Of a DNA stretch of 32,000 nucleotides, positions 10,121 through 26,944 are shown piece after piece. Both the position numbers and the translations under genes were made by a program. Position 1 is the stretch's first letter; each line of letters begins with the position of its first letter. This DNA is from Shewanella sp. GD04112. Lineage in GTDB: Bacteria; Pseudomonadota; Gammaproteobacteria; Enterobacterales; Shewanellaceae. The DNA is taken from contig NZ_JAOEAL010000001.1 of assembly GCF_029835735.1 (NCBI RefSeq), forward strand, positions 2,470,530-2,502,529. The letters run 5' to 3'. The notes beneath the pieces were generated by a model. The model made no database searches. It was not told where the DNA came from and worked only from the letters and a program-made list of their open reading frames with translations.

Positions 10121-10173
10121 ATAGTAAAAAGGATTAATAAACAAGGCCATGGATGGTTTTGATACTGTATGTT

Positions 10174-10205: not shown

Positions 10206-10430
10206 TCATCGACTGTGATATCAAACTAACTGATTCAAATCTTATTCGTGCGCTACGTGAAATCTGCAAAACTTGCAGGGGCAATCTTGCCAAATATTCA
10301 CGTAGGAACGCCTTGAAAATAGCGTAGAAGTAACCCATCAAATGTATCTATCCCTTGATTAAACAAAAATCAACGGTAAGCGCTAAACGAGGACAATCTT
10401 AACCCTTTATTGGGCGGACAATTAGACGCA

Positions 10431-10457
10431 TGAAAATTCTCACCGAGAATCAGAATG
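10431..10457 (+). repeat. Left terminal inverted repeat (IR-L) of the about 16.5-kb accessory segment
   Basis: TGAAAATTCTCACCGAGAATCAGAATG compared with the reverse complement of 26882-26908, TGACAATTCTCACTGAGAATCAGAATG, is 25/27 identical. It starts with TG and is preceded by CGCA (10427-10430). Confidence 0.8.
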
Positions 10458-10537
10458 AGCCTTCAATAAAATCAGATAGTTATACCTCTATTTCAGAATG
10501 CATCAAAACGAAGATTCTCACATAAATCAGAATGAGC
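10436..10537 (+). repeat. Sub-terminal direct repeats of an about 24-bp unit (ATTCTCAC-N4/5-ATCAGAATGAGC), plus partial copies
   Basis: Copy 1 is 10436-10460 (attctcaccgagaatcagaatgagc). Copy 2 is 10514-10537 (attctcacataaatcagaatgagc). Partial copies are aaaatcagatagt (about 10468) and tttcagaatgcat (about 10491). Confidence 0.8.
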
Positions 10538-11068
10538 TATATATTTATATTAACTATCTGAAATTTCTATATTTATTTTAAAAAGTGGTGCAGGCCGTTA
10601 TAGATAAACCCACATAGGTAACGTTTTCAATGAAGTGACTGACCACAAGATTGAGTAGATGCTATTGGCAATACCTTTCCATTATGCCCCCTTCATCCGT
10701 AAAAAAAACAACTGTCTGGACACCGACATTTTTATTACAAAATTTCTCCGTTTTTTTGTTAAATCAATGCAAAAGTTTCAGTATTTTTGTCCAAATATTG
10801 TTGGTTATTATCCAAAATTCATAAATGTAAGGTTAGTATCAGATTGATATTAACTTATTGTTTTAAATGGGTTCCTGAGCAATTTCGTACCCTTTGCTAA
10901 ATTCATATCCTGTTCGTCTTAGAGCATTGGAATCTAGAATGAGTGCCCAACCAAAATATGAATGGTCCATCTATGAAAATTAGCGACTGGCTGCCCGATT
11001 GATAGAACACTTATCCATGTCTTTTTCGTTGCTCTACACCGAACAGTGGCGATTCAAAGGAGGTTATT

Positions 11069-11239
11069 ATGGCTAAATCACTGAACGAACTTAGAAAGAG
11101 GCTTAAGCCACAAGTGCAATTGGCTGCTAGAGCTAAAGCAGAAGAAATTCTCGCTGAAATGAGCATGAAAGATGTGACTAAATCGCGTGGTCATAATGAG
11201 GCTACTGTCGAATTTCTGATTCCAGAAAGAAAAAATTAG
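11069..11239 (+). pseudogene. Short XRE/HigA-like antitoxin N-terminal fragment (56 codons)
   Basis: Strong SD aaggaggttattATG. MAKSLNELRKRLKPQVQLAARAKAEEILAEM resembles the N-terminal leader of HTH antitoxins, but the ORF stops before any HTH could be encoded. Confidence 0.35.
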
Positions 11240-11399
11240 TGGCAAAAGAAATGGATAAAACTAGGTAGCGAAGTAGTGGTGATTCAACCAACTTGAAATT
11301 AATTTGCCCCTTTCTTTGTTTCGCATGACCAAGTTAGCTCAGCTTGGTATTGAACCGTTGACCTAATTTTAGTAATGCTACAAGTGCCTACTGTTCTAG

Positions 11400-11812
11400 A
11401 GGCTAACCAGAGTCCCCGATAGAGGTCAATAAAATCGATCATTTCTGGGGTTTGCAATCTAGCACCGCGACTGCGAAAAAAGCCGCTGCCTTCTTCAAAA
11501 TTTCGTTAGCTTGTTTTAGCTCTCAGTTTTTACGTTTAAGCTCTTTAAGCCTGGTGGCCGTATCAGTTGTGACTCCAGTTTTCTCTCCAGAGGGCGGTTC
11601 CATTTTGTTAACCCATACTCGAAGGCTTTCTGGGGTACAACCGATCTTTGAAGCGATAGACTTGATAGCAGACCACCGAGATGGGTGCTCACGCTCTGCT
11701 GTTAAAACCATACGAACCGCACGTTCGCTGACTTCTGGGGAATAAGTAATTCTTTTTCTCATTGGCTAATTCTCTCAAGAAAGTTAGCCTCCGACAAACT
11801 AGGATCAATTCA
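11400..11812 (-). mobile_element. IS3-family remnant (left IR, orfA, first codons of orfB); inner (left-hand) boundary uncertain
   Basis: The minus-strand terminus TGAATTGATCC ends at 11812. It is followed by orfA and an ATGA-overlapping orfB start (MIDFIDLYRG..) at 11442. Recognisable transposase sequence fades near 11400. Confidence 0.6.
11436..11762 (-). pseudogene. IS3/IS911-type orfA (HTH transposase subunit) with an in-frame TGA
   Basis: MRKRITYSPEVSERAVRMVL...LKELKRKN-TGA(11520-11522)-ELKQANEILKKAAAFFA.. continues in the same frame, giving the typical IS3 OrfA leucine-zipper tail. Confidence 0.65.
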
Positions 11813-11866
11813 TCCTCCACGCTTTTTTACTCAGTTTGTTTTCACAAGCCGTAGTGGAGTTATGAA

Positions 11867-12733
11867 TCACAAGATCCACCGTTTTAAACTATGTGGCTGA
11901 GCGACCGTGAGCTGGTTAGCTTGAGGTGAAGATTTCAGCTTTTTTGTGTCAAGGCATATGTTTAGGCGTTTTACGTAATACTTAATCAAAGCTCTTCTGC
12001 AAGATACGAAAAACTGTGCTTCAAGCATCCCATAGTCTGCTTTTACAACCAGTTGCTGTTCTTGAGTAAGAAAGGGGTTCGTTGTGATTTCGAAAGTTTC
12101 TTCGATGTTCCAATCGTCATCATCTTCTTTGGTCAAAGAAGACTTATCGAGGATTTCAGGTTCATTCCTGAATCGGCTTAGAACAAAGTCTCGAAATCCC
12201 TTCTTCTCTTCACAGTAAGCTCGTACGTGCCATCTAAAACCATCGAAAACAAGGGTGTGCGGTGCAATGTTTCTTCCTCGCTCAGAAGGGTGCTCTAACG
12301 AAACATAGTCAACATCAACACATCGCTGCTCTCTTGCTGCTTGAAGCAAACGCCTAACGATAATTGGTGCAACATGGCGGTCAGGTACACTGAGCACGAT
12401 CGAGTTTGCTTGCCCTAGCCCTTGAAGGTCAAAACCATCAATATTTTCGTTAGTGTATTTGTTTAATAGAGACAGGTACTCGTTTGGCGTTCCCTGCGTA
12501 AAACGTGGTTTAAAGTCATTAGTGGGTCTATAGCCTTTAATCCCCCGGTCATGAACAAGCGGAGGTATTTCGAAAAGCTTCTGATAGTTAGCAATGTCTC
12601 TCGATGCTTGCTGCCGCCCGATGTTGAATGAATTGCAAAGATGATTGGTTGTGAGCCTGCCTTCCCAAAGGGCAACGATTTCAATGAGTCGAAATCTAAG
12701 AAGCTGCTCCCATTTAACGTCAGCGGTAACCAT
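11867..12733 (-). CDS. WYL-domain transcriptional regulator (N-terminal HTH + WYL), divergent from the muk/jet-like operon
   Basis: N-terminus: W.QLLRFRLIEIVALWEGRLTTNHLCNSFNIGRQQASRDIANY, an HTH. WYL core: RNIAPHTLVFDGFRWHVRAYCEEKKGFRDFVLSRF. The ATG at 12733 is preferred, because the 26-codon hydrophobic extension to 12811 would cover the promoter region. Confidence 0.75.
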   Translation of the reverse strand: MVTADVKWEQLLRFRLIEIVALWEGRLTTNHLCNSFNIGRQQASRDIANYQKLFEIPPLVHDRGIKGYRPTNDFKPRFTQGTPNEYLSLLNKYTNENIDGFDLQGLGQANSIVLSVPDRHVAPIIVRRLLQAAREQRCVDVDYVSLEHPSERGRNIAPHTLVFDGFRWHVRAYCEEKKGFRDFVLSRFRNEPEILDKSSLTKEDDDDWNIEETFEITTNPFLTQEQQLVVKADYGMLEAQFFVSCRRALIKYYVKRLNICLDTKKLKSSPQANQLTVAQPHSLKRWIL

Positions 12734-12759
12734 GTAATGCCTGTTTTTGCTACATGTTA

Positions 12760-12808
12760 ATGTATACAGACTATACATCAATAAAAACCACAAGTATATT
12801 GGGTATAC
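12760..12808. promoter_or_regulatory. Two GTATAC-containing palindromes in the divergent promoter region (candidate operators)
   Basis: ATGTATAcagacTATACAT (12760-12778) and GTATAttgggTATAC (12794-12808). Both lie between the WYL gene start (12733) and the operon start (12910). Confidence 0.4.
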
Positions 12809-12909
12809 CACTTACCAAACTCAACTTACTAAATTTGCGATAGAAAAATTGGTATTCGAGAAACATGGTAAAAATAGTGATCTAAAACGAGGAGCTTGCG
12901 CAGTTTCCT

Positions 12910-14241
12910 ATGTTCCAAACAGAAAGACTATCAGCTCTTTTAAACCAGGTTCGAATGAACGAGCCTGCATTACACATTGAGCCAAACGAATACCTTTATT
13001 TGGCAGCCATGAGCTTATGGAATGTAAACGACGATGACGATTACCGACTTGTCGACCCAGGATATAAGGAGGAACAGTGCAACGAAATATTCTCCTACGT
13101 TGACAGGTGGCTGGGTCAAGACGACATCACCTCATTCCGGACAAGTAATTTTCTAAAACGAGCTGTTGAACAGGGCCTCGTAATGCAGGCCGGAAGCTCG
13201 TTAAGAAACGCTGATGGCTTCTATCGACTTACTCAGCTGAGTCACGACCTCCTCAAGCCCTTTACCGGCGACACATTGATACAGAAAGAGTCACTTTCTC
13301 AGAGATATGTACGGTTGGAGATCTTGCTTGGGAACCTACTCGTCTTGAAGATAGAGGATGACGAAGAGTGGGCTAATGAGATTAAGGCTCAGCTACCTTC
13401 ATTTAGGGACCTTCTCGATGGTATTAACAAAAACCAGGAGGCCTTAATAAAAGGGTTTCAGCTTCAACGCAGCTCGATCCAGTCAGCAGCCAGCGGCTCT
13501 CTTGCGCAACAAATGCAGCACTTGATTGAGTTAATTGACGAGATTGCAGGCCAAATAAGGGACCTAAAATCGTTGATACTGAATGGGGCGGACAATGTGC
13601 TTTCTCTACTTCATGAAATCAAAGAGATGGCACATAACAGAAATGCTCCGATCAGACTTACCAATGCTATGGCTGATATTCATGACCAGCTGGATTCTAT
13701 TCGTCAGTTCTCTGGGCACTCTCTTCTGGAGCTAGCAGAGTTCTTTGAGCAAGTTTTATCCACTATCCGCCTAAAAATCACCCTAGATCCAAACGCGAAT
13801 CTCAATTTATTGATTGAAAAAGCAGTCCTGCAAATGGATCGGATGCCTTGGTCAATCTCTATTCTTGCGCCAGATCCTGTTGTGGAGCTCAGGGATTGGG
13901 AGGCTCCGCCTCCACCTTTGGAAAACGAACTGCCAAATGATGGCGACCCTGAAGTCATCCTTAGAAAGACCCCTAGCGACTACCTAGAAAAATTAGCTAA
14001 GGGACTCGTTGCGAGAATGTATGAGAGCGATAACGAGGTCGATATTTCAAAAGTTGCCGACCAGATCCTTTCCAATGAAGAGTTTCAATATAAAGACCGC
14101 CATCGGTTGCTGTTTTTCATCTTCGATGAGTTGATAAAAAACGGAGATTGGACACGCCCTGCCTATCACCCTGAGTGGGTACAATTAGCACACGATAATA
14201 ACGTTGAAATTGAACAACAGTGGTTCAAAAAATATGACTGA
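12910..14241 (+). CDS. jetA: MukF-like kleisin (JetA/MksF-class) subunit
   Basis: 443 aa; E. coli MukF is about 440 aa. The N-terminal winged-helix region ..FLKRAVEQGLVMQAGSSLRNADGFYRLTQLS.. resembles MukF ..[30 protein letters not shown]... There is an acidic/proline linker (WEAPPPPLENELPNDGDPE). The C-terminus EWVQLAHDNNVEIEQQWFKKYD resembles MukF [20 protein letters not shown]. The E. coli strings are from memory. Confidence 0.7.
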   Translation: MFQTERLSALLNQVRMNEPALHIEPNEYLYLAAMSLWNVNDDDDYRLVDPGYKEEQCNEIFSYVDRWLGQDDITSFRTSNFLKRAVEQGLVMQAGSSLRNADGFYRLTQLSHDLLKPFTGDTLIQKESLSQRYVRLEILLGNLLVLKIEDDEEWANEIKAQLPSFRDLLDGINKNQEALIKGFQLQRSSIQSAASGSLAQQMQHLIELIDEIAGQIRDLKSLILNGADNVLSLLHEIKEMAHNRNAPIRLTNAMADIHDQLDSIRQFSGHSLLELAEFFEQVLSTIRLKITLDPNANLNLLIEKAVLQMDRMPWSISILAPDPVVELRDWEAPPPPLENELPNDGDPEVILRKTPSDYLEKLAKGLVARMYESDNEVDISKVADQILSNEEFQYKDRHRLLFFIFDELIKNGDWTRPAYHPEWVQLAHDNNVEIEQQWFKKYD

Positions 14242-15016
14242 TCATCTATTTACACACGCTCAAGACTCAAAGAAACAGTACCTTACACTAGATGATGTAA
14301 TTGATGACCCCCTATTCGCGGATGTAGATTATCGCCTTAGGGGCGGGGTAAACATTACTAGTGAAGATGACCGGTTACATACCTTTCTAGGAGAGACGGA
14401 GAGTGTGCTTCGCAAGTTTTACGGCAAGTTACACCTGGCTCTAGAAGTCACGCCTGAGAAAGTTTATTACCTAAGGCCACAGCGTCGTTCAAATGTTCCT
14501 ACGACCCGATTGAACCAATTAGAAATGGTTATGGGTCTAACGATAGTTGCAATGCAATGGGAAAAAAATGCGACTGATTTCGAATGGATCCCCGTTGATT
14601 TTCTTATTGAACGATTGAAGTCTCAGCTGTCGGACGAACGGTTCGCTGAGTTGTATCGCCGTAAGCCGGGCATTCAGACAGACCATGATGTAGGGCGTGT
14701 GAGAGAGGAAACGTTGAAGAGACTCTCTAGACTGTCACGTCTGAGTTTTATTAGGCTCAACAGAGATGAGCAGACTTTCTGGGCAACTAATGCGATCTAC
14801 AGGTTTATCGAACCTTTGAAAGGCTTGAGCAGCGAAGACGAGTTGCCAGGCCGCATAAGTTCGTTAATCCAAGAGGGTTTTCTTACCGACTCACCTTCGC
14901 CCAGAGAAGAGTTAAGAGACACGCCAAGAACAGAGTCTGAACATTGGTCATCAGAAGGCCTAACTATCGAAGGTGATACTCGCGATATGTTTGATGCGGA
15001 GGAATATGATGCGTAA
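14234..15016 (+). CDS. jetB: MukE-like KITE (JetB/MksE-class) subunit
   Basis: DPLFADVDYRLRGG...FYGKLHLALEVTPEKVYYLRPQRRSNVPTTRLNQLEMVMG parallels E. coli MukE NPLFPALDSALRSG...[40 protein letters not shown] (from memory). It has an acidic C-terminal tail. ATG 14234 overlaps the upstream stop (ATGACTGA). Confidence 0.75.
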   Translation: MTDHLFTHAQDSKKQYLTLDDVIDDPLFADVDYRLRGGVNITSEDDRLHTFLGETESVLRKFYGKLHLALEVTPEKVYYLRPQRRSNVPTTRLNQLEMVMGLTIVAMQWEKNATDFEWIPVDFLIERLKSQLSDERFAELYRRKPGIQTDHDVGRVREETLKRLSRLSRLSFIRLNRDEQTFWATNAIYRFIEPLKGLSSEDELPGRISSLIQEGFLTDSPSPREELRDTPRTESEHWSSEGLTIEGDTRDMFDAEEYDA

Positions 15017-18000
15017 TTACCCATACATAAAGAGCCTGTCGCTTGTGGGCGTCAACGGAGTCTCTGCCAGAACCCTCGATTTAGTTAATCCTCATGAACA
15101 TCAGACTGATAGGCAATATGGCACCGTGGTTAGCCTTTTAGGCAAAAATGGTTCAGGGAAAACGACGCTACTTGGGACCTTTATGTTGGCTCTCTTACCC
15201 GATATTCGCTCGGTCAGTTTGGGAACATCGGATAATTTTACTCAGACGCAGAAGATGCAGGACGCAGAAATGTTTGAGCGCTTGGGTAATCCGTCTCTTA
15301 TTGGGTTAGAGGTTGTATCTCGTGCTGGTGAAAGAGCGCTGTTTATTGTTCGCTCTGAGCGAGAGACGGGGTCCCGCTTGAAGTTTGACACGTTCAGGGT
15401 TGGGTTGTTCGATAGTTTAGCACCACTTGATTTTCTTATCGTTCGTAACGGCAACATGGTTACGCCCAGAACTATAGATGGTATTCGAGATATAGCTGCC
15501 GAGCATGGCTGCCGACTACAAAGCTTCGACAAGATTGATAAATACATGCTGGCGTTGTTTAACGATGGTATTTTGCCCAGAACATTCAACCGTTCTAATG
15601 AGCGTTACCAATTAGGTCAGATTTTTCACAGCGCCATGTCAGGAAAAAGAGATCAAGCTATCGGCCGAGATCTAGCTGATTTCCTAATGACGCACTCAAG
15701 GACAAATATCAAAAGTGTGGTCGATGTGTTGTCTGGAACAATGCGAAAGCTTAGGCAGACAAGAGATGATCTGGCGCACAACTCCAAAGACTATGCGTTT
15801 TTCAAGGAGTTGTTAGAGAAGTCCTTCACTGTATCAGCTAAAGCATGGGCTCAAGCCGAGTACAATTTTTCTCGAGCAGATAAAGAAGCTACATCCTGTC
15901 GACAAGATGTTTCAGAGTGCAAAGTTTCTATTGAGAAGAGTGATCAGGATCTTACGGAGTGTCGTTCGAAACTAGATACAAGCGTTGAGAATAGAACATC
16001 ACTCGAGCAGGAAAGTGAACAGCTAAAGCCAAGACTTGCTTCTGCTGTTGAGGGCGAAATCTTCTACAAGCAGGGTAAACAAGCCTCTGTGAGTCTATTA
16101 AAGAAGGAAGCTCAACTTTACGAGAGTTTGAGTTTGTCCCAGTTGGCTGACGAAGGCGCTGACGCGTCGCGCAACAAAGTTGAACAAGCTAATCAAGATA
16201 TCTTGGATATCCAAGCACAGCTCGCAGATGTGCAAGAACGTTTTATCCTTCTTGAGAAAAAGGCGGGGCAATACCGAAATGCGAAGTCGTTATTAGATAG
16301 CGTCAAGAGCTGGTGTGGCGATAGCTTTGAACTAGCGAAGCTTAAGGGCATGATTGAAGAATACACTGCACAATCCAAACAGCTAGCGCTAGAGGCGGAC
16401 CAGCTGGGAAACAAGCTCAATAGTGCAGAGAATATCAATGAAATTCATGCTAAAGCTGCATCACTGATTCGACGCGCTGGCGATAGCATTGACCCAAACG
16501 TCGCAAAGAATTGGTTTATCTCTACAGAGCTTAGACTCGAAGAGGAACGCCCGCTAGCCGTTAGCCTTGAACAGATGAGAAATGGATTGAGTGCGTTGAA
16601 AAGGAATCATCGTACTGTGAACCGCATGCTTGATCGCTTTAAGCAAGCAAAGTTACCACGCATGCCTTCCAATGAATCTGAGTACCAACAGCTTACGGAA
16701 GACAGAGGAGAAGCTCTTGAGTCGGCGAAGGAGGTGAAAGCGAGTGTCGATGCTAGGTATGAGGACGAGCGACATATCCAGGAAGAGCTAAAGATCGAGG
16801 TTTCACGTCTCAAATCGCTGCGAACAGAGTGGCAAAATTATCAACCTGCGGTTGCACGTTTATATGAATGCTTCCCTGATACTCAATTCACGGCAGAGAT
16901 GTTAGATGGGTTGATTAAAAACACGCAGAGAGAACTCAGGTCATTACGAGAGAATAACTCCCGAATAGAGAGCAATATATTTTCTTTGAAAGAGAGGATC
17001 CTTTCACTCAGCAACAGGGAAACTGGGTCATTGGAAACCCTCCAACGTTTTGCCAGCGATGTTGGCGGAGTGGCCGTAGCGGACTTGTATAGCGATATAC
17101 CGTTAGAAGAAGCTGGATTCACCGAAGCGGCTTTAGGTCAGCTTATGTGCGCTATCGTAGTGAATGACCCGAGCGATGCGGCTAGAACGCTATTAGCTGA
17201 ATATGGTGATAACTGGCCATTACCTGACGTGATCTTAATGACTGTAAAAAACCACAGTCCTGATCAACTACGGAGTGGTGGCTATGACGCGGACCTGTTT
17301 TTTAAAGATCTTAGTCAAGAGTTTGTAGGTGCTGATCTAGACCTTAATCACAACGAAAATGATGTTCCTTGGGTAGTTCTCAGTGAACCCTTTGGCGGTA
17401 TACGTGTTAGCGGGGTGCCTACTGAACCAGTTTTGGGTAAAGAGGCTCGGGATAAGCTGATAGCAGATCTACAAATTGAGTTAAATTCAAAGCAAACTTT
17501 GTTTGACAGTAACGATGAGAATATATCGCTGCTGCAAAGTGGCCTAGAGCAAGCCAATCGAATCAACGTTAATCCCTCATTGGCTTTCGCTGTTGAGCCT
17601 AATGTTGAGCTCAAAAAACAGAAATTACAACAACAAGGTAATAAGGTAGCTGACCTGTACTCTCAAACGTTGCAAGCGACCAATCGCGTAAAAACCTTAG
17701 AACTACAATGCAGTTTGCTTGAACAGCATGCGGATTCAAGTGATTTGCTAGACGTTAACTTCGACAAGGAGATTATGGAAGCAGAGGAACAAATCATACG
17801 TTCTGAAAAGGCTAAAAAGTATGTCGATAGGTACGGCGGTACCTTCTCGCAGATAAAGCAGCAATACCCGAAGATTCGAGAAGATTATCAATCTGACATA
17901 GACACGCTAAAGCGACAACATCAACTCGCTGAACAAGATCTTAGCAATACCAACAACCGCAAGCGCGATTTAACCTCGCTTAACCAAGTGGCGAATCATC

Positions 18001-19562
18001 TCGCTGACGATTACGAGCAAGCACAAAACGATCTTGCGAAAGAAGATGGAAACGTAAGTTCATTGCGTGAGAGGCACAAACAGAAACGTGTCATGCTCGA
18101 TGAGTTGAAGGTTCAGTTGAGAGAAAGCGAAGATAAAGCACGCAAAAACAAAGAGGTACATCTTAAGCTTCAATCGGAATATTCTGTGTTAGAAGAGCAG
18201 GTTGCGGAATCAAAACGTAGTTTGTCAAAGCTGACTTACCCTTATTGCGAAGGACTCGAAAAACAACTTTCACTCGATAGCGAAACGATATCTAAACGAT
18301 TGAGAGCGGCTCAAGAGCAATGTGAATCACTCCAACTTAAGCAAGTATCATTAACCGAACGCCATAACACCCTACTCAAGCAAGTAGAATCCCTACAGAG
18401 TACATCAGTGATTGCAGAAGAGGCGCGTGAAAATGCAAATGGTATAAAGCAAAAGGTGCTGGATGCTCTGCCTGCCGGAGCCACAAAACATAAGCTAGAG
18501 CAAGAAATGGACGTCTATTTTAAACTGATGCATGAAGGTGAGGCCGTCCAATACACTAATGGGATTTACGCAATATCTGGATTGGTCAATCGCTATGGTT
18601 TGAGTCGAGATGATGAGTTCTCCCAAAAAATAAATAGTTTTAATCTAGAGGGAGGGACCACCCTGCCTAGTCTTTGCCAGCTGCATAGTGACGCTATTTC
18701 TTTGTTTCGTCGGCAAGCCCGAGGGGACATTATTCGTAGTTCCGAGCCGACAGAGATGCTTACACAATTGGATAGTGCGTGTAGTCTCGCTAGGAGAACA
18801 CTTGAAAGCGCCGAAGAGCAGTTTCTCACAGATAGAAATGAACTAGGAAATGCCATTGCCCGTCGTGTACAGGATGAGCAGAAAGCCATAAGAAGGCTAA
18901 GTGCTGAAATGATAGGAATAAGCTTTGGGCAAGTTGCGGCTATTCGTCTAGTACCTAAAAGCGTCCCTCATTTCGAAGCTACTTTGAAGGCTTTGAGAGG
19001 AAGCGACGATGTCATGGACGATCTCTTCAATAATGCTGAAGATGTAGAAGAAGCGCTCGCAACACTATATCAAAAAACCACTGGTGGCCGGATCGAGGGA
19101 GAAAAGCTGCTTGACCATAAGAACTACATCAATGTGGTAACAGAAATCCAGAGAGTTGGTAGTGAAGAATTTGAGTTATTGGATGACAAAACACTTTCAA
19201 CAGGAGAGCGAATTGGCTCTGGATTGGTTGTCTTAATAGCAATTCTAAAAAACTGGGGACGGGTCTCACATGAAAAACAACCTTTCTTAATCCCGTTAGT
19301 AATGGATGAAGCATCACGTTTGGACTCCGACGCTCAGAGAACGGTGCACCAGTTGGCGGTAAAGACCGGAAGTCAGATTGTAATTGCCGCACCTGAGTCG
19401 CAAGGAAAGATATCAGGTGTTGGCTATCAACTTGTCAGAAGTGCTTCTAAAGCAGGTAACAAAGAGAGCCGTGTAATCATTAGTGGGATCCGGGATGCTG
19501 ACAGTTTAGGGATTGATGAAGAAGCATTTATCGATTCGGTTGTGAGTGGGGCGGCGCATTGA
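15006..19562 (+). CDS. jetC: MukB-like SMC ATPase (JetC/MksB-class), 1518 aa
   Basis: - SD GGAGGA precedes ATGATG at 15006.
- N-terminal head: IKSLSLVGVNGVSARTLDL, Walker A GKNGSGKTT (15141-15167), ALLPD.
- Very long coiled coils.
- Hinge-like VADLYSDIPLEEAGFTEAALGQLMCAIVVNDPS.
- C-terminal head: SFGQVAAIRL...LSTGERIGSG...LVMDEASRLD (D-E at 19305-19310)...QIVIAAPE...GYQLVR.
- Each motif matches MukB motifs as I recall them. Confidence 0.85.
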   Translation: MMRNYPYIKSLSLVGVNGVSARTLDLVNPHEHQTDRQYGTVVSLLGKNGSGKTTLLGTFMLALLPDIRSVSLGTSDNFTQTQKMQDAEMFERLGNPSLIGLEVVSRAGERALFIVRSERETGSRLKFDTFRVGLFDSLAPLDFLIVRNGNMVTPRTIDGIRDIAAEHGCRLQSFDKIDKYMLALFNDGILPRTFNRSNERYQLGQIFHSAMSGKRDQAIGRDLADFLMTHSRTNIKSVVDVLSGTMRKLRQTRDDLAHNSKDYAFFKELLEKSFTVSAKAWAQAEYNFSRADKEATSCRQDVSECKVSIEKSDQDLTECRSKLDTSVENRTSLEQESEQLKPRLASAVEGEIFYKQGKQASVSLLKKEAQLYESLSLSQLADEGADASRNKVEQANQDILDIQAQLADVQERFILLEKKAGQYRNAKSLLDSVKSWCGDSFELAKLKGMIEEYTAQSKQLALEADQLGNKLNSAENINEIHAKAASLIRRAGDSIDPNVAKNWFISTELRLEEERPLAVSLEQMRNGLSALKRNHRTVNRMLDRFKQAKLPRMPSNESEYQQLTEDRGEALESAKEVKASVDARYEDERHIQEELKIEVSRLKSLRTEWQNYQPAVARLYECFPDTQFTAEMLDGLIKNTQRELRSLRENNSRIESNIFSLKERILSLSNRETGSLETLQRFASDVGGVAVADLYSDIPLEEAGFTEAALGQLMCAIVVNDPSDAARTLLAEYGDNWPLPDVILMTVKNHSPDQLRSGGYDADLFFKDLSQEFVGADLDLNHNENDVPWVVLSEPFGGIRVSGVPTEPVLGKEARDKLIADLQIELNSKQTLFDSNDENISLLQSGLEQANRINVNPSLAFAVEPNVELKKQKLQQQGNKVADLYSQTLQATNRVKTLELQCSLLEQHADSSDLLDVNFDKEIMEAEEQIIRSEKAKKYVDRYGGTFSQIKQQYPKIREDYQSDIDTLKRQHQLAEQDLSNTNNRKRDLTSLNQVANHLADDYEQAQNDLAKEDGNVSSLRERHKQKRVMLDELKVQLRESEDKARKNKEVHLKLQSEYSVLEEQVAESKRSLSKLTYPYCEGLEKQLSLDSETISKRLRAAQEQCESLQLKQVSLTERHNTLLKQVESLQSTSVIAEEARENANGIKQKVLDALPAGATKHKLEQEMDVYFKLMHEGEAVQYTNGIYAISGLVNRYGLSRDDEFSQKINSFNLEGGTTLPSLCQLHSDAISLFRRQARGDIIRSSEPTEMLTQLDSACSLARRTLESAEEQFLTDRNELGNAIARRVQDEQKAIRRLSAEMIGISFGQVAAIRLVPKSVPHFEATLKALRGSDDVMDDLFNNAEDVEEALATLYQKTTGGRIEGEKLLDHKNYINVVTEIQRVGSEEFELLDDKTLSTGERIGSGLVVLIAILKNWGRVSHEKQPFLIPLVMDEASRLDSDAQRTVHQLAVKTGSQIVIAAPESQGKISGVGYQLVRSASKAGNKESRVIISGIRDADSLGIDEEAFIDSVVSGAAH

Positions 19563-20509
19563 TGCATGGACTACTGGAGGATGTAAAGTTAACACCTAAG
19601 CAGGCACTGGCACTTATTGATAAGCTTATTGAGCGCGGGAAAGTGTTGCCCAACCAGAGAGATAGTTTACTGATTGAGCGCCTTGAGCAACTTGGCATAG
19701 TGAAACGAGTGGGGAGTTACTGGCAGCTGTGTGAGCCCCAACGCATTGAGAGTGTTCGTAACCAAATAACGCAATATACTTTGCAAAAAAACAGGCCTGG
19801 TATCTTACGAAAGATGCCCGTTGTACATCATAAAAGTGCTGCTGCCTGGCGAGGACATAGCAAAAGTGGGCAAGGCGAGGCTCTTCAGAAAGGTCAACTG
19901 ATAAGTACAGACGATGTAGTACGGGTCCGCACTCAGAAGACCGGGTTCGTAATATACAGCGATAACGCCACGATTGATACTGACTTGGAGACTCTGCAAA
20001 GGACTGAAGTCAGCTTACCAGAACGGTTGTACAAAGACGCTCATGCGCCCTGTGTCGCTGGGGTAAAGTTGGTGTTGACTGTCGAAAACTTGGGCACATT
20101 TGTTGACTTCCCCATGGTGGATGGACTCGTATTGGTTTACTCATCAGGGAATAACTTTGCATCATCGGTTTGTTTTATCAAGCGCTTCTTGGAAGAGGTG
20201 ACCTGGGCACACTTCCCGGACCTTGATCCCAATGGTCTGATCATATCAACGCAAATGGCAGATACCCTCAACAAACCTTGCAATGTTTGGATTCCACCTC
20301 ATTGGGATAGGGTCCGAGCTCAGCCGCTGGTTTCTGGTAAAGGAAAAAAGGTATGGGGGGAAGCCCCTGCCTGCCCTGAAATCGCAAGTTTGCAGGAAAC
20401 AAGCCATTGGGTTGAGCAAGAGGTTCTCGTCTTAGATCAACGAAGCGTCAAAGCCGTCAGTGAGCTTGTTAGTGAGCCTAAGCTCCGGCTAATAACTCTT
20501 CAATACTAA
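19562..20509 (+). CDS. jetD: JetD/MksG-type Toprim (topoisomerase-VI-like) nuclease subunit, 315 aa
   Basis: The start overlaps the jetC stop (TGATG). Toprim signature: VLTVENLGTFVDF (Glu codon 20084-20086), WAHFPDLDPNGLII (DxD 20228-20236), then HWVEQEVL. The N-terminus looks winged-helix-like (LIDKLIERGKVL..LEQLGIVKRVGSYWQL). Confidence 0.7.
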   Translation: MHGLLEDVKLTPKQALALIDKLIERGKVLPNQRDSLLIERLEQLGIVKRVGSYWQLCEPQRIESVRNQITQYTLQKNRPGILRKMPVVHHKSAAAWRGHSKSGQGEALQKGQLISTDDVVRVRTQKTGFVIYSDNATIDTDLETLQRTEVSLPERLYKDAHAPCVAGVKLVLTVENLGTFVDFPMVDGLVLVYSSGNNFASSVCFIKRFLEEVTWAHFPDLDPNGLIISTQMADTLNKPCNVWIPPHWDRVRAQPLVSGKGKKVWGEAPACPEIASLQETSHWVEQEVLVLDQRSVKAVSELVSEPKLRLITLQY

Positions 20510-20699
20510 AGATTTTACGATTGACAGTTCAGGCGGCAGTTAATCAAACATTGTACTCGGCGAAGCTGATGTTCGTGCAGTGTGTCGACAATTCCGCTAC
20601 AGGGAAAGTCTCAATTCATTGCCTGGCGAACAATAGCCTAGCTATGCCCATAAGAAGCAGTTATCTGACTAGTTTACTTCTTAAGAATAAGGATACTTA

Positions 20700-22010
20700 A
20701 TGAGTATTGAGAAGTTTAGAAGCGTGGAGGAACTAAAACAGTTCTTCGAAGAAGGAGGTAACCCTTGGTTTGATGCAGAATTTTCTCCTCAGACTCAGAG
20801 TATCGTCGAAGCATTGGATGCAAAAGGAGCCTTTCTCAATAAGTGGTGGGTAAGGACCGCCATGGATTGGAAGTGTCCCGCCTGTAAAAGGACTAAGCCC
20901 CAAATAGCCAAACTAGATAATCGTAGATATGCCTCCTGCAAACTGGAGGAGCATCACGATCACATGAAGGATACGGTGCGCACGTTGTTCGAAGAAATAT
21001 CTTCGAACAGAGAAGTCGTTGTTGCAACTGAGCTAGCTAAGCGGTTTGCAATCAGGACGTCCTTTGCAATTTCCGCTTACGATAACACGGTGATTTGCGC
21101 GGATTGTAATAAAGCAGACGGTATTGCAAAACGGATGGTCAAAACTCACAGTGACTTTTCATACTCTCCAGCAGAAATTGGGCGATTTGTAAAACCATCA
21201 GATAATCGAGAGCATGAAATTGACGCGGATATCGCCAAGGAAATTTGGAACGAGAATCTGGAAACGTTCAATAAGCGTATGCAGTTGGCAAAAGTTATAG
21301 CGGAGTTGGCTGCCAGCGATTCACATTGGTATCAACCCTCAGAACCAACAGCCAAGCAAGTCAATGATTCTGCCAATTACAAGTTTAACTTGCGTGGATT
21401 AAGAGACCTTCACGATGATCCTGAAAAGCTTCTATACAATACAACGCCTTTCAAGGGAAACCACTCATCATGGAGATTGAATCCCAAGCCTTTCACAAGT
21501 ACGAGACCAACTGATGGACAAATAGCACATTTATCTAACACCAGGGGGCGGTACTGGAACAGGTACGACGACAGCTGGCAATGCCCATGTTGTGGTCGTT
21601 TAAAGCGGGAATGTCTTAAGCCGTCTAAAAATAACCCTTGGGTGTTTGAAGTAAAGGCCATTCTAGCTCATGATTCTGAGCATCAGTCTTTTGCTGAAGA
21701 AATTAAGGTGTGCAACGAATGTTTCAATGCTGCAAACCATCTTGGCCAGGAAGCAATAAAAGAAGCCAAAGAACAAGATGAGACGGTAGATGTATATTTT
21801 CCACATAGCTTGATACAACTGGAAGAGTTGAAGTCTGTTATAACGCCGAGATTACACTCCTCACATATCATTGATAATGACTTGGCTGAAAACGTGGTTC
21901 GCAATGCCATCAGGCGCATTATTGATGAAGACTATAACCAATCCCCAAAGCACAAGATGAAGCTGCAAGAACAGTTCAGTACAATGCTTTATGGTGGAAG
22001 TTGTGAATAG
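20700..22010 (+). CDS. Protein with two endonuclease-VII/HNH-like zinc modules (436 aa), otherwise unassigned
   Basis: SD aaggatacttaATG. Module 1: WKCPACKRTK...KLEEHHDHMKD...(about 47 aa)...VICADCNKADGIAKR. Module 2: WQCPCCGRLKREC...ILAHDSEHQSFAEEIKVCNECFNAANHLGQ. The layout CxxC...H.DH...CxxCN..(D/E)G is that of the T4 endonuclease VII branch of the HNH fold. Confidence 0.55.
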   Translation: MSIEKFRSVEELKQFFEEGGNPWFDAEFSPQTQSIVEALDAKGAFLNKWWVRTAMDWKCPACKRTKPQIAKLDNRRYASCKLEEHHDHMKDTVRTLFEEISSNREVVVATELAKRFAIRTSFAISAYDNTVICADCNKADGIAKRMVKTHSDFSYSPAEIGRFVKPSDNREHEIDADIAKEIWNENLETFNKRMQLAKVIAELAASDSHWYQPSEPTAKQVNDSANYKFNLRGLRDLHDDPEKLLYNTTPFKGNHSSWRLNPKPFTSTRPTDGQIAHLSNTRGRYWNRYDDSWQCPCCGRLKRECLKPSKNNPWVFEVKAILAHDSEHQSFAEEIKVCNECFNAANHLGQEAIKEAKEQDETVDVYFPHSLIQLEELKSVITPRLHSSHIIDNDLAENVVRNAIRRIIDEDYNQSPKHKMKLQEQFSTMLYGGSCE

Positions 22011-22164
22011 TTCAGCCTTCGCTAGACACGAATGCAGCGACTCCACTGTCTAATTTGATCAAATATTGTGAAGGTCCACTAGAACCGACTTTAAAAAAAA
22101 TCAGTGATTTATATGGGGATTACTAAAATTGGCCTTCTTTTGAGAATTACATGAGGGGAATGAA

Positions 22165-22530
<366 letters not shown>

Positions 22531-22857
22531 CTATGCCACTACACTCATATATTAGAACGTGAGAGCGTGGAGCGGATCGCTGCTCATCCTGGAAATCCGA
22601 TTGGCAATATTGTCGAACTCTGGGAAGAACAGGAAATCGGTGTGACTAAAGAAGCAAAGTTATTGAAGGTAATTGACCGCTTATTGCCATTCTTACATAA
22701 CATGACTAGCGAAGGCCAAGCTTGGAGGGATAATGGAATACATAAAGCCCAAGTGTTGAATATGCACCAATTTATCGAGAAGGAAAGTCCTGAAATTTTT
22801 TCATGGTTTGTTATACAGCTCGAATATGCCGTTGAACAAGGTTGGCTTAAAGCATGA
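22531..22857 (+). pseudogene. 3' fragment of an HD-domain (HD_3-type metal-dependent phosphohydrolase) gene
   Basis: ..IVELWEEQEIGVTKEAKLLKVIDRLLPFLHNMTSEGQAWRDNGIHKAQVLNMHQFIEKESPEIFSWFVIQLEYAVEQGWL matches the C-terminal half pattern of HD_3 proteins. The catalytic HD part is missing, and the frame is open right up to the IS3 terminus at 22530. Confidence 0.55.
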
Positions 22858-23065
22858 TCTTTCATTGGTTGTTTCTTGTCTATCCAGACTAGGCCCGTAA
22901 CTTGTCGATGCCCCATTCAAAGTTATCAACACGACTTGAGATGAGCATCACTAGCCTAATGTTGACCCAAACTAAGTAATGCGACAAAGTCCCCCTGTGT
23001 CAGGATTGTTGTCACCCCTAAATAATCATTATGTTTAAAGACAGGGTGCGGCAAAAGAGAACGAT

Positions 23066-23566
23066 ATGGCTCGGTATTCACCAGAACGTAAAGAAGCGAT
23101 CCTTAAAAAATTATTACCTCCTCACAACTTAACGGTCGCAGAGGTCGCTCGGGAAGAAGGCATCGCGGTGCAAACCTTGTATCATTGGCGAGATATTGCC
23201 AGAAAAGAAGGTCGCCCCGTGCCAGGTAAAACATTAACAGCCGATGATTGGTCGGCTGAAGCAAAACTTGCCGTGATTATTGAAACAGCGCCGCTGTCGG
23301 AAGCGGAGATAAACCAGTATTGCCGTGAAAAGGGCTTGTTCCGCGAGCAAGTACAGCAGTGGAAACAGGATTGTTTAGCTGGTTTTCAAACCTCAGAAGT
23401 ACAAACTAAAACCATTAAACAGCAGGCTAAGGCTGACAAAGCCGAAATCAAATCGCTGCAACGGGAATTGCGCTATAAGGAGAAAGCGCTGGCTGAAGCT
23501 GCTGCGTTACTGGTGCTCAGAAAAAAGCTCAATGCGCTCTGGGGGGACGACAGCGAGGAGAGCTAA
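23066..23566 (+). CDS. IS3-family transposase OrfA (HTH + leucine zipper)
   Basis: MARYSPERKEAILKKLL..LTVAEVAREEGIAVQTLYHWR is an HTH, followed by a coiled-coil tail KAEIKSLQRELRYKEKALAEAAALLVLRKKL. Confidence 0.8.
   Translation: MARYSPERKEAILKKLLPPHNLTVAEVAREEGIAVQTLYHWRDIARKEGRPVPGKTLTADDWSAEAKLAVIIETAPLSEAEINQYCREKGLFREQVQQWKQDCLAGFQTSEVQTKTIKQQAKADKAEIKSLQRELRYKEKALAEAAALLVLRKKLNALWGDDSEES
23521..23527 (+). promoter_or_regulatory. Programmed -1 ribosomal frameshift heptamer A AAA AAG
   Basis: The heptamer is in the X XXY YYZ register of orfA (codons AGA AAA AAG). The -1 frame is open from here into orfB (..AQCALGGRQRGELTPLPERIALI..). Confidence 0.7.
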
Positions 23567-23571
23567 CCCCC

Positions 23572-24621
23572 TTGCCTGAGCGCATAGCATTGATTGCCTT
23601 AATCCAAGAGGCCTATACCAATGGTGCTCGCCTTTATAAGGCTTGTGCTGAAACGGGCCTCAGTAAGCGTACCTATCGACGTTGGTATCGAGAAGGTCAA
23701 GTGCAAGCTGATTTAAGGCCAACAGCAGCTCGACCAGAGCCAGCAAATAAACTCGAAGAACATGAGCGACAACAGATATTAAGTGTGTGCAATCAAGCGG
23801 AGTACGCCAGCTTACCCCCGTCGCAAATTGTGCCAACATTATTAGATAACGGGATTTATATCGCCTCGGAATCCAGCTTCTACAGAGTGTTAAATGCTCA
23901 TGGTCAACTTAACCATCGTGGCCGCACTCAGGCTGCGGTCAATCGAAGCAAACCGTTGAGTTATCGGGCAGATGGGCCGAATCAAGTGTGGTCATGGGAC
24001 ATCACTTATTTAGCCTCAATCGTCAAAGGCCAGTTCTACTATTTGTACCTGTTTGAAGATATTTACAGTAGAAAAATAGTGGGTTACGAAGTTCATGAGC
24101 AAGAAAGTGGGGAATATGCCGCTGCGCTAATCCAACGCTGTCTGTTACGCGAGCAATGCTTTAACACGCCATTAGTGCTGCATTCTGATAATGGGGCGCC
24201 GATGAAGTCACTGACCATGAAAGCCAAGCTGGAAGAGCTTGGTATTACGGCATCATTAAGTCGGCCGCGGGTGAGTAATGACAACCCCTTTTCAGAGTCG
24301 TTATTTAAAACGTTGAAATACCGCCCACAGTGGCCGGCATCAGGTTTTAGCTGCTTAGCAACAGCAAGAGAATGGGTGGAAAAGTTTGTAACCTGGTACA
24401 ACGATGAGCATAAACACAGCCAGCTAAATTTTGTCTCACCAGGGCAACGTCATGCACTGCAAGATGGCGCTATTTTAGCGAAGCGCAAGAAAGTGCTTGA
24501 GGCGGCGAAGGAAAGAAAACCGATGCGTTGGTCTACAGAGATCAGAAATTGTGAAGCGGTTGGCGCTGTAACACTCAACCCAGATAAGGCACCAGAAGAA
24601 GGCGTAATAAATGCAGCTTAA
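23572..24621 (+). CDS. IS3-family transposase OrfB (DDE integrase core; expressed as an OrfAB fusion)
   Basis: WSWDITYL (D), LVLHSDNGAPM (D), SNDNPFSESLFKTLKYR (E); rve-type core. The frame is -1 relative to orfA. Confidence 0.8.
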   Translation: MPERIALIALIQEAYTNGARLYKACAETGLSKRTYRRWYREGQVQADLRPTAARPEPANKLEEHERQQILSVCNQAEYASLPPSQIVPTLLDNGIYIASESSFYRVLNAHGQLNHRGRTQAAVNRSKPLSYRADGPNQVWSWDITYLASIVKGQFYYLYLFEDIYSRKIVGYEVHEQESGEYAAALIQRCLLREQCFNTPLVLHSDNGAPMKSLTMKAKLEELGITASLSRPRVSNDNPFSESLFKTLKYRPQWPASGFSCLATAREWVEKFVTWYNDEHKHSQLNFVSPGQRHALQDGAILAKRKKVLEAAKERKPMRWSTEIRNCEAVGAVTLNPDKAPEEGVINAA

Positions 24622-24764
24622 TATTTAAACAAAGAGTGACAACTATCTTGAAAAACACCGAAGTCGCCGACTCTAACTATGGCGATTCTGCGCCGCTTAC
24701 TACTAATAATCATTAAGTTAATTATTCTTAAATATCTGAAAGGAAGCACCTATGATAGGCATTA

Positions 24765-25106
24765 TTGCCGATTGTCTTGGTTTACCTGGGCGTCCTACTC
24801 TTTTTAAGCCAGATTCTGCTATGGAAAATGCCTGCTGGGGGCAAGAAAACAATGGTTTCTCTGCTGCTGTTGCCGCTGCTGGCAGGCCTAAGCTTTATTG
24901 ATGAAATATGGGCCAGGCACCAGTTTCAGGCCTTATGCGCAGAAGATAATTTACTAAGCTACCAGGCGGATAAGGTCAGGGGGCAAGCGGTCAGCACCAA
25001 AGCGCTGATCCGGAACAATATCAGCGCAGCCGTGCCTATCGTTGAGCATACCCGGTACTGGTTTGTAGCTGGCACTGATGACATCGTGATCACCAGCAAA
25101 AGTTAG
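24765..25106 (+). CDS. Hypothetical small membrane protein (2 predicted TM helices); doubtful start (TTG)
   Basis: Hydrophobic N-terminus IVLVYLGVLLFLSQILLW and LLLLPLLAGLSF. It is more GC-rich than the DNA downstream. A competing ATG at 24752 with a good SD lies in another frame. The ORF ends at a TAG that is in frame with the next ORF. Confidence 0.25.
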   Translation: MPIVLVYLGVLLFLSQILLWKMPAGGKKTMVSLLLLPLLAGLSFIDEIWARHQFQALCAEDNLLSYQADKVRGQAVSTKALIRNNISAAVPIVEHTRYWFVAGTDDIVITSKS

Positions 25107-26018
25107 TTAGAAAATGGAAATTTATCTCCTCAAGATGCTGAGAAGCAATTAAGCGACATCTTAGTTCCGTTATTAAATGAAGATGGGTATAACATTGTTC
25201 AGACTCCTTTTCGCGGTGACATTGGAGTAGATTTTATTGCTGAGAAGCAACTTTCCACTAACCTAGAGCAAGTGGGAATCGAATATAAGCACTATAAATC
25301 TGCTGTAGGTGTCGATGCTGTTCGCCGGTTACTGGGAACAACATTTACTCACAACTTTGACCGTTTAATTTTAGTAACCAAATCTCGTTTTACTAAAGCT
25401 GCCCTTGAGCTTGCGAATTCGGCTTTACCAGTCAAGCTTGAACTAATTGACTTAGATGCTCTAAGAGCGTGGGTGCAGAGAGCAGAAAAAACTGAAGACT
25501 ATGACTTCGAACTAGTAAATATTATTCGTTCCAATATTAGCGAGCGGTTAGCAGTGCTAATAGCTAAAAATCCGCGATATCTAATGGATATTGAATGGAG
25601 AGAGCTTGAGTATGTTATTCAAACCGTTTTTGAAGAGCTAGGGTTCAGCGCAGAACTTACCCCAGGAAGCAAAGATGGCGGTAAAGATTTAGTGCTTACC
25701 TGTAGGATTTCTGGGCAAGATCATACATATTACGTAGAGCTGAAGCACTGGAGATCCCAACAAAAAGTAGGTGGACAAGCTGCTAGAGGTTTCCTGAAAG
25801 TGATTGTTAATGAAGAAGTGAATGGTGGGTTATTTCTTTCTTCATATGGTTATTGTGAGAATGCGTTTGAAATGTTGACTGAAATTGACAGAAAACATTT
25901 AAAGTTCGGCGATCAGAAAAAAATCGTTACATTATGTACACAATACGTTAAGTCTAAATCTGGTATTTGGTCTCCTACTAGCGGTTTATCGGAAGTATTG
26001 TTTGAACAAACTATATAA
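25107..26018 (+). pseudogene. Tandem Mrr-like (PD-(D/E)xK restriction-endonuclease fold) domain protein with no credible start for domain 1
   Basis: Domain 1: GYNIVQTPFRGDIGVDFIAEK...VGIEYKHYKS..VGVDAVRRLLG...LILVTKSRFTKAA. Domain 2: LGFSAELTPGSKDGGKDLVLT...YYVELKHWRS..VGGQAARGFL..GGLFLSSYGY. The frame is open from 25107, immediately after TAG 25104-25106. The first in-frame start (GTG 25272) falls inside the E-x-K motif of domain 1. Confidence 0.5.
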
Positions 26019-26046
26019 ATTCGCCTAACAAGGCGCTCAAGAATGA

Positions 26047-26069
26047 CAAAAAACGCTTGGCGTTTTTTG
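26047..26069. terminator. Bidirectional terminator-like palindrome (A6-stem-loop-T6)
   Basis: caaaaaacgc ttg gcgttttttg, 29 nt after the Mrr-like stop codon. The GC core of the stem is short. Confidence 0.4.
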
Positions 26070-26277
26070 CATCTTAGCTTTGCGTTAACCCATAGAAATT
26101 TTTATCCGAAAATGTCGAGTTAGAGTTAAGGCTTTAACTCGGAATTGTCCAATTACTTGATAGAGCATTTAATACAAATGAAAGAATAGGGCGGAATAAA
26201 AGTAGTCACAAAATTAGTGTTTTAAGATGCTTATTACATTGACAAATGCCATACATTTTTTACAAGGAAGCATCTTC

Positions 26278-26748
26278 ATGATATCAGTAACTTTTCACGA
26301 AAACTCGAGGCGTACACGTCAATTCAAGTCTGAAAATGGAGCTTTGAAGGCCGTATGGAAATGGCTTAAAGCAACAGAAGACGATAACGCCTATGCAGTG
26401 ATTATTGGTCCTATGTATTCTGAGCCAAGAGTCATCAAAGGCTGGCAAGAACTTCCATTCAGTGAACCTGAAAATTTAGACTTTTTGCAGACTAAGGAAT
26501 GGCGTCGACTGAGACAACAGGCCTTTGAGTTATATGGAAACTTTTGTGCCTGCTGTGGTAGAGGTCCAAAAGATGGCGTAGTGCTTCATGTAGATCATAA
26601 AAAACCTCGTTCGAAATATCCAAAACTTCAAGATGACATCAACAATCTTCAGATTCTTTGTGAAGAACACAACCAAATGAAATCCAATACATCTGAGCGC
26701 GATTGGGCTCAGTGGTGCCAAGCCAACTCTGTACGTGGCACTAAATAG
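26278..26748 (+). CDS. HNH endonuclease (small, stand-alone)
   Basis: Classical motif CACCGRGPKDGVVLHVDHKKPRSKYP....NLQILCEEHNQMKSN. The ATG at 26278 follows aaggaag; the track start at 26227 is less likely. Confidence 0.8.
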   Translation: MISVTFHENSRRTRQFKSENGALKAVWKWLKATEDDNAYAVIIGPMYSEPRVIKGWQELPFSEPENLDFLQTKEWRRLRQQAFELYGNFCACCGRGPKDGVVLHVDHKKPRSKYPKLQDDINNLQILCEEHNQMKSNTSERDWAQWCQANSVRGTK

Positions 26749-26834
26749 TCCAACACAAGGGTTAGTGAGGCACGGGCACGTGTCGAAGTATTCATAAATC
26801 AGAGCGACTGTTGTTATAAACACTCAGACACAAA

Positions 26835-26904
26835 ATTCTCACGTATTTCAGAATAGAGCACCTAAATCAGAATAGTGAGAACATTCTGATTCTCAGTGAG
26901 AATT
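26835..26904. repeat. Cluster of the same about 24-bp units as at 10436-10537, here in opposed orientations (mini-palindromic block)
   Basis: attctcacgtatttcagaatagagc (26835-26859, + orientation). atcagaatagtgagaac is a partial copy. cattctgattctcagtgagaat (26882-26903) is in inverted orientation and is part of IR-R. Confidence 0.8.
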
Positions 26905-26908
26905 GTCA
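26882..26908 (-). repeat. Right terminal inverted repeat (IR-R) of the accessory segment
   Basis: Its reverse complement, TGACAATTCTCACTGAGAATCAGAATG, matches 10431-10457 at 25/27. It ends ..CA at 26907-26908 and is followed by CGCA (26909-26912), the same tetranucleotide that precedes IR-L. Confidence 0.8.
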
Positions 26909-26944
26909 CGCATAGGGAATAGTGCTTTCCATATTTACTCACAT

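Follow-up and report, generated by a model that had tools for sequence, protein, structure and literature searches.

A transposase-less 16.5-kb block beside dif in Shewanella points to a possible transposon family homing to the XerD side of the dimer-resolution site

The dif site, 28 bp long, is found in nearly all bacterial chromosomes, and insertions in its neighborhood are harmless; being both near-universal and tolerant of insertions beside it, dif is an ideal landing pad. To our knowledge, the only transposable elements that target it are small insertion sequences (IS) that abut its XerC arm. Comparable behavior at other resolution sites is known from the Tn5053/Tn402 "res-site hunters", which target the plasmid and transposon res sites served by serine resolvases, carry the tniABQR genes and generate 5-bp duplications. 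Among DDE elements, those known to target dif belong to the ISAba32/ISAjo2 subgroup of the IS1202 family, which have been called "dif/pdif site hunters" (Harmer, Pong & Hall 2023, PMC10132070; Siguier et al. 2022, bioRxiv 10.1101/2022.12.17.520857). Here we analyze a 16.5-kb block that lies next to dif in Shewanella sp. GD04112, within a window of 32,000 nucleotides (assembly GCF_029835735.1, contig NZ_JAOEAL010000001.1, positions 2,470,530 to 2,502,529; all coordinates below are those of this window). We find this block to be a genuine transposon-type insertion without a transposase gene of its own, which is probably a non-autonomous DDE-type transposable element carrying a mosaic defence island. 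We further see an even chance that it represents an undescribed family of cargo-carrying transposons that homes to the XerD side of the chromosomal dif at an offset of about 38 bp and builds defence islands at the terminus.

The block extends from 10431 to 26908 (16,478 bp), with TG (10431-10432) and CA (26907-26908) at its tips, and is bounded by terminal inverted repeats that match at 25 of 27 positions and constitute the longest inverted repeat within 10300-27100 (Table 1). A 22-nt core of this repeat, searched with up to three mismatches, occurs at only two places in the whole window, namely the two block ends, and was never recovered in 100 shuffles. The GC (guanine plus cytosine) content of the block is 37-46%, versus 49-52% in the core fdh genes. 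An earlier note on this DNA, made from the sequence alone, had placed the 27-bp repeats, the TG...CA tips and a copy of CGCA outside either end precisely where we find them, and had proposed that relatives lacking the island be examined for an empty site with a single CGCA. Such a site does exist. Contigs reached via the FdhE homologues of close relatives include two Logan contigs from different samples, L015 (DRR294018) and L016 (DRR293975), with an FdhE 99% identical and a left flank 96.8% identical to those of the window, which read ...TTATTGGGCGGACAATTAAACGCATAGGGAATGATAGC...-dif, that is, the two flanks of the window joined via one CGCA (also written as ...ACAATTAAACGCATAGGGAAT... / ...GGACAATTAAACGCATAGGGAAT...-dif). 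The occupied junction, GGACAATTAGACGCA/TGAAAATTC, is found in identical form in at least seven other Logan contigs; hence, both alleles exist in nature, and the difference between them is exactly 16,478 bp plus 4 bp. The single CGCA of the empty site therefore indicates that the block is a precise insertion accompanied by a 4-bp target duplication, at a site 35-39 bp from dif.

Formally, the identity between the junctions spans 6 bp (ACGCAT), as T is the first and A the last base of the element. The terminal A can be assigned to the element because five right ends from different lineages all finish in ...TCA and continue with differing bases, and the terminal T because of the symmetry of the inverted repeats. 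As judged from these alignments, 4 bp is the best reading of the duplication length. Terminal inverted repeats with TG...CA tips, combined with a short duplication that is single in the empty site, are generic features of DDE elements.

To trace the ends beyond this locus, the 22-nt core was scanned against one genome for each of 185,579 species, which recovered S. mangrovi, the Shewanella metagenome-assembled genome ES07-05 and one match in Oceanispirochaeta (L004). The last of these is a chance match, apparently situated in coding sequence, with neither a dif nor a second motif in its vicinity. The corresponding scan of metagenome contigs yielded one contig (L006) with a right end at dif, and a search for homologues of the HNH endonuclease encoded beside the right end of the block added a further right end in Shewanella sp. 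A3A. All non-chance core matches are right ends adjoining dif. The core is absent from IMG/VR, blastn searches with both ends against PLSDB plasmids and with the right end against phage records returned nothing, and no similar ends occur among more than 72,000 plasmids. The species-wide scan thus disposes of a concern raised in the earlier note, that the 27-mer could be a common dispersed repeat unconnected to mobility.

In each of the four other lineages a module of about 95 bp ending in ...GAGAATT[G/A]TCA is followed by a spacer and then by dif, always in the same orientation. The spacers measure 36 bp in S. mangrovi, 40 bp in ES07-05, 38 bp in A3A and 39 bp in the metagenome contig, and in the window dif likewise begins 39 bp past the right tip; we take the arm facing the block to be the XerD arm from its identity, together with the central region, to that of E. 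coli dif. Thus, the right end in five lineages, including the window, lies in one orientation and 36-40 bp from the XerD arm, and what had earlier been put forward as a hint of a terminus-proximal target preference now has the character of a rule. The spacers are unalignable between species, whereas on the far side of dif S. mangrovi, ES07-05 and A3A show about 90% conservation, with no other element there. Within the right-end module the terminal 43 bp are nearly invariant across the five lineages, and 53-60 identities are seen in the last 60 bp. The bases that follow the right tip differ from lineage to lineage (CGCA, GCAT, ATCA, AACA and CAAC) and therefore look like a target duplication rather than a fixed core for recombination. 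Three lineages possess a dif but lack the module: that of the empty site in L015, the DNRA4-like lineage with its gene order fdhE-fdhD-dif, and S. avicenniae.

The HNH gene next to the right end is 75-88% identical across the lineages. Between the window and A3A it shows 86-88% identity. S. mangrovi can be placed in the clade of A3A, as the dif-flanking integrases of the two share 93% identity, yet its FdhE matches that of the window at only 63%. As the HNH proteins are far more alike between clades than is the core protein FdhE, horizontal transfer with the same landing geometry is indicated, and the recurrence of this geometry in unrelated flanks across clades is the chief reason for preferring dif-directed insertion to chance or to homologous recombination. 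Taken together, the sequence comparisons suggest that the elements with this end near dif in several Shewanella stem from a mobile element that homes to dif.

The two ends of the block are structurally different. A motif scan with TTCTCA[CT]-N5/6-TCAGAAT detected four full copies in the window, all of them at the block ends. At the left end the copies are direct and spread over about 105 bp, while at the right end they are inverted and nested within about 75 bp, where full sites and half-sites together form nested palindromes. When folded as single-stranded DNA the right end is far better than its shuffled versions (z = -4.3), and the left end is not. Mu, Tn7, IS21 and IS1202-type elements bind their transposase at repeated subterminal motifs. 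This role has been described for the IS1202 motifs (PMC10132070), and by analogy the repeated motifs of the block ends are putative transposase-binding sites. As a side observation, hypothetical joined ends (26902-26908 and 10431-10456, linked via 4 bp) would place a -35-like TTGTCA 18 bp from GAGAAT; its likeness to the promoters at the junctions of circular IS intermediates is too weak, and it is not used as evidence.

As for genes that might act on these ends, the block has none that matches them: its only DDE genes come from an intact ISSpu6 and from IS3 fragments, and neither the termini of ISSpu6 nor the inverted repeat carried by the IS3 fragment match the block end TGAMAATTCTCAC. This bears out the earlier claims that a matching transposase is missing and that the IS3 ends are unlike the block repeats, ISSpu6 being the only intact IS present. 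The first 870 bp inside the left end hold, by eye, apparent decayed toxin-antitoxin remnants, and a stop-to-stop translation of 10458-11430, also inspected by eye, contains nothing transposase-like. The search for copies of the ends in relatives, likewise proposed in the earlier note, did return right ends, although no intact copy enclosing a transposase was among them. Overall, the outcome of these checks favors the reading given in that note, of the block as a large transposon. Approaching an autonomous copy via HNH homologues in other genomes led only to the A3A relic, the remaining homologues lying away from dif, and approaching it via the dif-flanking gene, in the dif regions of S. avicenniae and the relatives sampled, led to empty sites or unrelated contexts. 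A known RNA family or a tRNA that could serve as target was not found in the window.

The closest precedent for this arrangement is the ISAba32/ISAjo2 subgroup of IS1202, even though the geometry differs. Like the block, these DDE-type elements insert in one orientation and at a fixed distance from XerCD sites, including the chromosomal dif, produce short duplications (3-5 bp; 4 bp in ISLad2) and carry 24-29-bp inverted repeats, the inner repeat being present once more internally close to either end. However, they are 1.3-2.5 kb in length with a single TnsB-like transposase gene, in contrast to 16,478 bp with no such gene, their tips are TGT...ACA and not TGA...TCA, and they insert 3-5 bp from the XerC arm (PMC10132070), as opposed to 36-40 bp from the XerD arm. 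Tn7-like elements share with the block an oriented insertion at a set distance from a conserved "safe" landmark, as seen here in five lineages, two differing ends with several subterminal repeats, and a large defence-rich cargo. Yet they encode tnsA, tnsB, tnsC and tniQ, none of which was detected in the block (Pfam, NCBIfam and PADLOC searches of open reading frames of at least 80 aa and selected shorter ones), and have 5-bp duplications and TGT...ACA tips, whereas the block has the 4-bp CGCA and TGA...TCA. A published survey of Tn7 target-selectors does not mention dif as a target (PMC10293859). The Tn5053/Tn402 elements resemble the block in homing to a dimer- or multimer-resolution site in one orientation, and in having 25-bp inverted repeats and repeated transposase-binding motifs, but their res targets, tniABQR genes and 5-bp duplications are not seen here. 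The integrative mobile elements exploiting Xer recombination (IMEX), such as CTXphi, TLC and the gonococcal genetic island, also occupy the dif region; they integrate within dif via XerCD and are flanked by dif-like sites, whereas what flanks the block is a target duplication, 39 bp away from dif. Searches of the literature revealed no transposon directed at the XerD side of dif. The block is best placed with the site-directed transposons that use a resolution site as landing pad, of which it would be an XerD-side representative.

Several alternative explanations were weighed against this reading. An unlikely one is site-specific integration by a tyrosine recombinase, in which ACGCAT/CGCA would be the attachment (att) core and the 27-mers the recombinase-binding arms of an attP formed by the joined ends. 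The formal 6-bp identity of the junctions, the arm-core-arm symmetry that the joined ends would have, the nested palindromes of the right end and the genes of a 415-430-aa tyrosine recombinase family adjoining dif in relatives could all be accommodated by it, but the lineage-specific bases after ...TCA leave no conserved core, the target in the empty site has no arm-like sequence beyond the core, and the block itself has no recombinase or integrase gene. The dif-flanking integrases, moreover, are situated on the XerC side, and this in module-bearing species and the module-less S. avicenniae alike. It is also improbable that the block has ordinary IS3- or IS21-type ends that lost their transposase, its position reflecting survival in a permissive terminus hotspot and not targeting. 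Its TGA...TCA tips and 4-bp duplication would fit IS3 (IS407 group) and IS21 by the ISfinder family descriptions, and IS3 debris is indeed present inside the block. Nevertheless, the resident IS3 elements have ends unlike those of the block, the more than 72,000 plasmids lack similar ends, and random insertion followed by selection would not give five of five lineages in one orientation with a distance spread of 5 bp.

We regard as very improbable a single ancient insertion, or a dif-accessory module, that was inherited vertically, the left repeat being the product of a later rearrangement and the block not a mobile unit. S. mangrovi, A3A and the metagenome contig L006 (where readable beyond the end) show only the right end with HNH remnants, and the right-end module is strongly conserved, as this explanation would have it. 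It is, however, largely refuted by the precise single-CGCA empty site in strains whose FdhE is 99% identical; nor does it agree with the non-homologous spacers of different species, with an HNH far more similar between clades than FdhE, or with the lack of the module in S. avicenniae and the DNRA4 lineage. XerCD-mediated integration of an IMEX at dif, suggested by the position of the block next to dif and by an IMEX-type filamentous prophage on the other side of dif, is refuted by the junction structure: the window has one dif (at up to 10 mismatches in 27 bp) and nothing dif-like around the left boundary, insertion took place 39 bp from dif and not inside it, and a target duplication is present. 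Other candidates were tried and rejected: a matS-like site, GTGAGAATTGTCAC, has the wrong length and its flanking C is not conserved; ends of the IS200/IS605 type do not agree with four non-conserved bases after TCA and with a duplication; and homing by the HNH endonuclease would leave no duplication, the HNH gene being cargo elsewhere.

On the reading of the block as a non-autonomous DDE-type element homing to dif, its transposase would, as the earlier note had suggested, either be supplied in trans or have been encoded by genes since lost, in our view in IS3-associated rearrangement and cargo replacement. A multi-subunit transpososome would assemble on the repeated motifs, and the difference between the two ends might fix the orientation of insertion. 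A target selector would read dif, or XerD/XerCD on dif, and direct strand transfer to a point on the XerD side, at a set distance; homing might operate by reading the dif sequence, XerD bound there or FtsK stalled there. Such a selector would resemble TnsD/TnsC of Tn7 or the proposed transposase-XerC contact of the ISAjo2-type IS. In Tn7 and the CRISPR-associated transposons the selector and the insertion point are kept apart by an AAA+ adaptor, and the offset seen here is of the order found in those systems. Relics with a right end probably persist because a deletion removing them must stop within the 36-40 bp spacer before it damages dif.

A number of observations weigh against this proposal. 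A transposase, AAA+ regulator or selector fitting the ends was found neither in the window nor at any of the compared loci. Both ends are known for only one copy, and the duplication length and the architecture of the left end rest on that case. No left end could be detected in S. mangrovi and A3A over the 8-10 kb covered, and in ES07-05 the contig begins no more than about 440 bp into the element; that the insertions in these three arose independently is deduced from their non-homologous spacers. The spacer of the empty-site strain is only about 75% identical to that of the window, and the occupied allele may therefore have come into this lineage by homologous recombination and not by transposition. 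Finally, one site at the right end is inverted relative to the terminal one, unlike in Tn7 ends, and a 4-bp duplication with TGA...TCA tips does not suit Tn7-like elements, Mu or Tn5053 (5 bp, TGT...ACA).

The interior of the block is a mosaic of defence cargo (a BrxR/WYL regulator, MukFEB-like proteins with JetD, Mrr and HNH) and IS3 debris. The genes spanning 12910-20509 look like a MukBEF-derived Wadjet-like system: the MukB-like protein passes the NCBIfam MukB equivalog cut-off of 699 with a score of 1527 bits, whereas its MukF and MukE partners stay far below cut-off. The 436-aa protein encoded at 20700-22010 has no match in Pfam, NCBIfam or PADLOC, and accompanies the Muk/Jet module in both genomes in which we observed it, the window and CP080417.1. 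In the latter, a complete genome, a segment 99% identical to 11787-22296 (10.5 kb; L020 441-10947) adjoins gcvTHP, with an OLD-family nuclease gene replacing the IS3 fragment, and that locus has neither the inverted repeat nor dif. The occurrence of this module at a locus away from dif indicates that the interior is exchangeable cargo. The same is true of the HNH gene, as its homologues in S. fidelis and strain Koi 1 lie away from dif; what is specific to the family would thus be the ends themselves, perhaps together with the HNH gene at the right one. The resident ISSpu6 matches copies on plasmids of Shewanella, Klebsiella and Citrobacter at 99.7-100% identity, pointing to a very recent arrival in the island.

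Table 1. Coordinates of the block, its ends, its interior features and the adjoining dif site in the 32-kb window
Feature	Position	Strand	Remarks
CGCA, left copy of target-site duplication	10427-10430		CGCA single in empty sites L015/L016
Left terminal inverted repeat	10431-10457	+	Starts with TG; reads TGAAAATTCTCACCGAGAATCAGAATG; holds full site TTCTCAC-N6-TCAGAAT (10437-10456)
Two left half-sites	10470-10500	+	AATCAGATAG (10470-10479) and ATTTCAGAATG (10490-10500); oriented as terminal site; read from sequence
Left subterminal full site	10515-10533	+	TTCTCAC-N5-TCAGAAT; direct to terminal site, 78 bp further in; motif scan
IS3-family fragment	11426-11800	-	orfA remnant, 79 aa, 11523-11762
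Cargo module	11787-22296		Pfam, PADLOC, NCBIfam
BrxR/WYL regulator	11867-12733	-	Cargo module; divergent to Muk/Jet genes
MukF-like	12910-14241		Cargo module
MukE-like	14204-15016		Cargo module
MukB-like, 1529 aa	14973-19562		Cargo module
JetD-like	19559-20509		Cargo module, after Muk trio
436-aa protein	20700-22010		Cargo module; two CxxC...HH(D)H...CxxC modules
IS3 orfA fragment	22270-22470	-	IS debris
HD-domain gene fragment	22567-22857		Interior
Intact ISSpu6 (IS3 family)	22990-24661	+	Later insertion; ends unlike block ends
Mrr-type restriction endonuclease	25272-26018	+	Cargo; Pfam Mrr_cat, E = 1e-29
HNH endonuclease gene	26227-26748	+	HNH or remnants beside right end in every end-bearing lineage
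Right-end conserved subterminal part	26814-26881		Full site 26836-26854 (+), opposite to terminal one; half-sites AATCAGAAT (26865-26873) and GTGAGAA (26875-26881)
Right terminal inverted repeat	26882-26908	-	Ends with CA; reverse complement reads TGACAATTCTCACTGAGAATCAGAATG; full site 26883-26902, minus strand
CGCA, right copy of target-site duplication	26909-26912		CGCA single in empty sites L015/L016
Native spacer, insertion point to dif	26913-26947		Present in empty sites
dif	26948-26975	-	ATTTAACATAA-TATACA-TTGTGCGCATC; XerD arm ATTTAACATAA faces block; presumed targeting landmark

The surroundings of dif offer further observations. The filamentous prophage on the XerC-arm side of the same dif begins at 26976 and continues past the end of the window at 32000; it encodes a Zot-like protein (27400-28740), DUF2523 proteins and a 523-aa protein, and shares about 77% identity with Shewanella phage Dolos (OP867012.1) across 79% of its length. 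Directly on this side of dif, several Shewanella have a gene of the 415-430-aa tyrosine recombinase family (L007 11787-13052; L005 1274-2656; L017 10001-11263; L012 12106-13401). In S. mangrovi, A3A, ES07-05 and S. avicenniae a tyrosine recombinase gene is found about 1 kb from dif, and in the DNRA4-like lineage a 27%-identical homologue ends 37 bp from it. The family has more than 2,500 homologues and, among the matches listed, these are mostly from marine Gammaproteobacteria. The dif-flanking tyrosine recombinases may represent a second, integrase-based way of occupying dif. The XerC arm of dif itself varies, reading TTGTACGCAG or TTGTGCGCAG in L006, L014 and L015 as against TTGTGCGCAT in the window, L003, L005 and L007, and the variant tracks the content of the XerC side, be it an integrase island beginning with GTT(N)TGTGTGAGAGGGATTT, a prophage or the native flank, a pattern that Xer-dependent integration could produce by leaving hybrid dif sites behind. 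On the fdh side, DNRA4-like relatives (L012 10901-12042) display fdhE and fdhD followed by dif, while the window (10121-10430) and the empty-site strains lack fdhD and have about 310 bp of unrelated DNA from fdhE to the insertion point.

A cargo element inserted in one orientation about 38 bp from the XerD arm would mean that the dimer-resolution site can be read by transposons in a second, mechanistically different way. An offset of this size is of the kind that an AAA+ "ruler", or else a contact with XerD or FtsK, would set. If true, the proposed homing would help to explain the variable XerD-side flank of dif in Shewanella and the gathering of defence islands at the terminus, and the transposase and selector, if found, could provide a natural, near-universal and sequence-directed insertion system.

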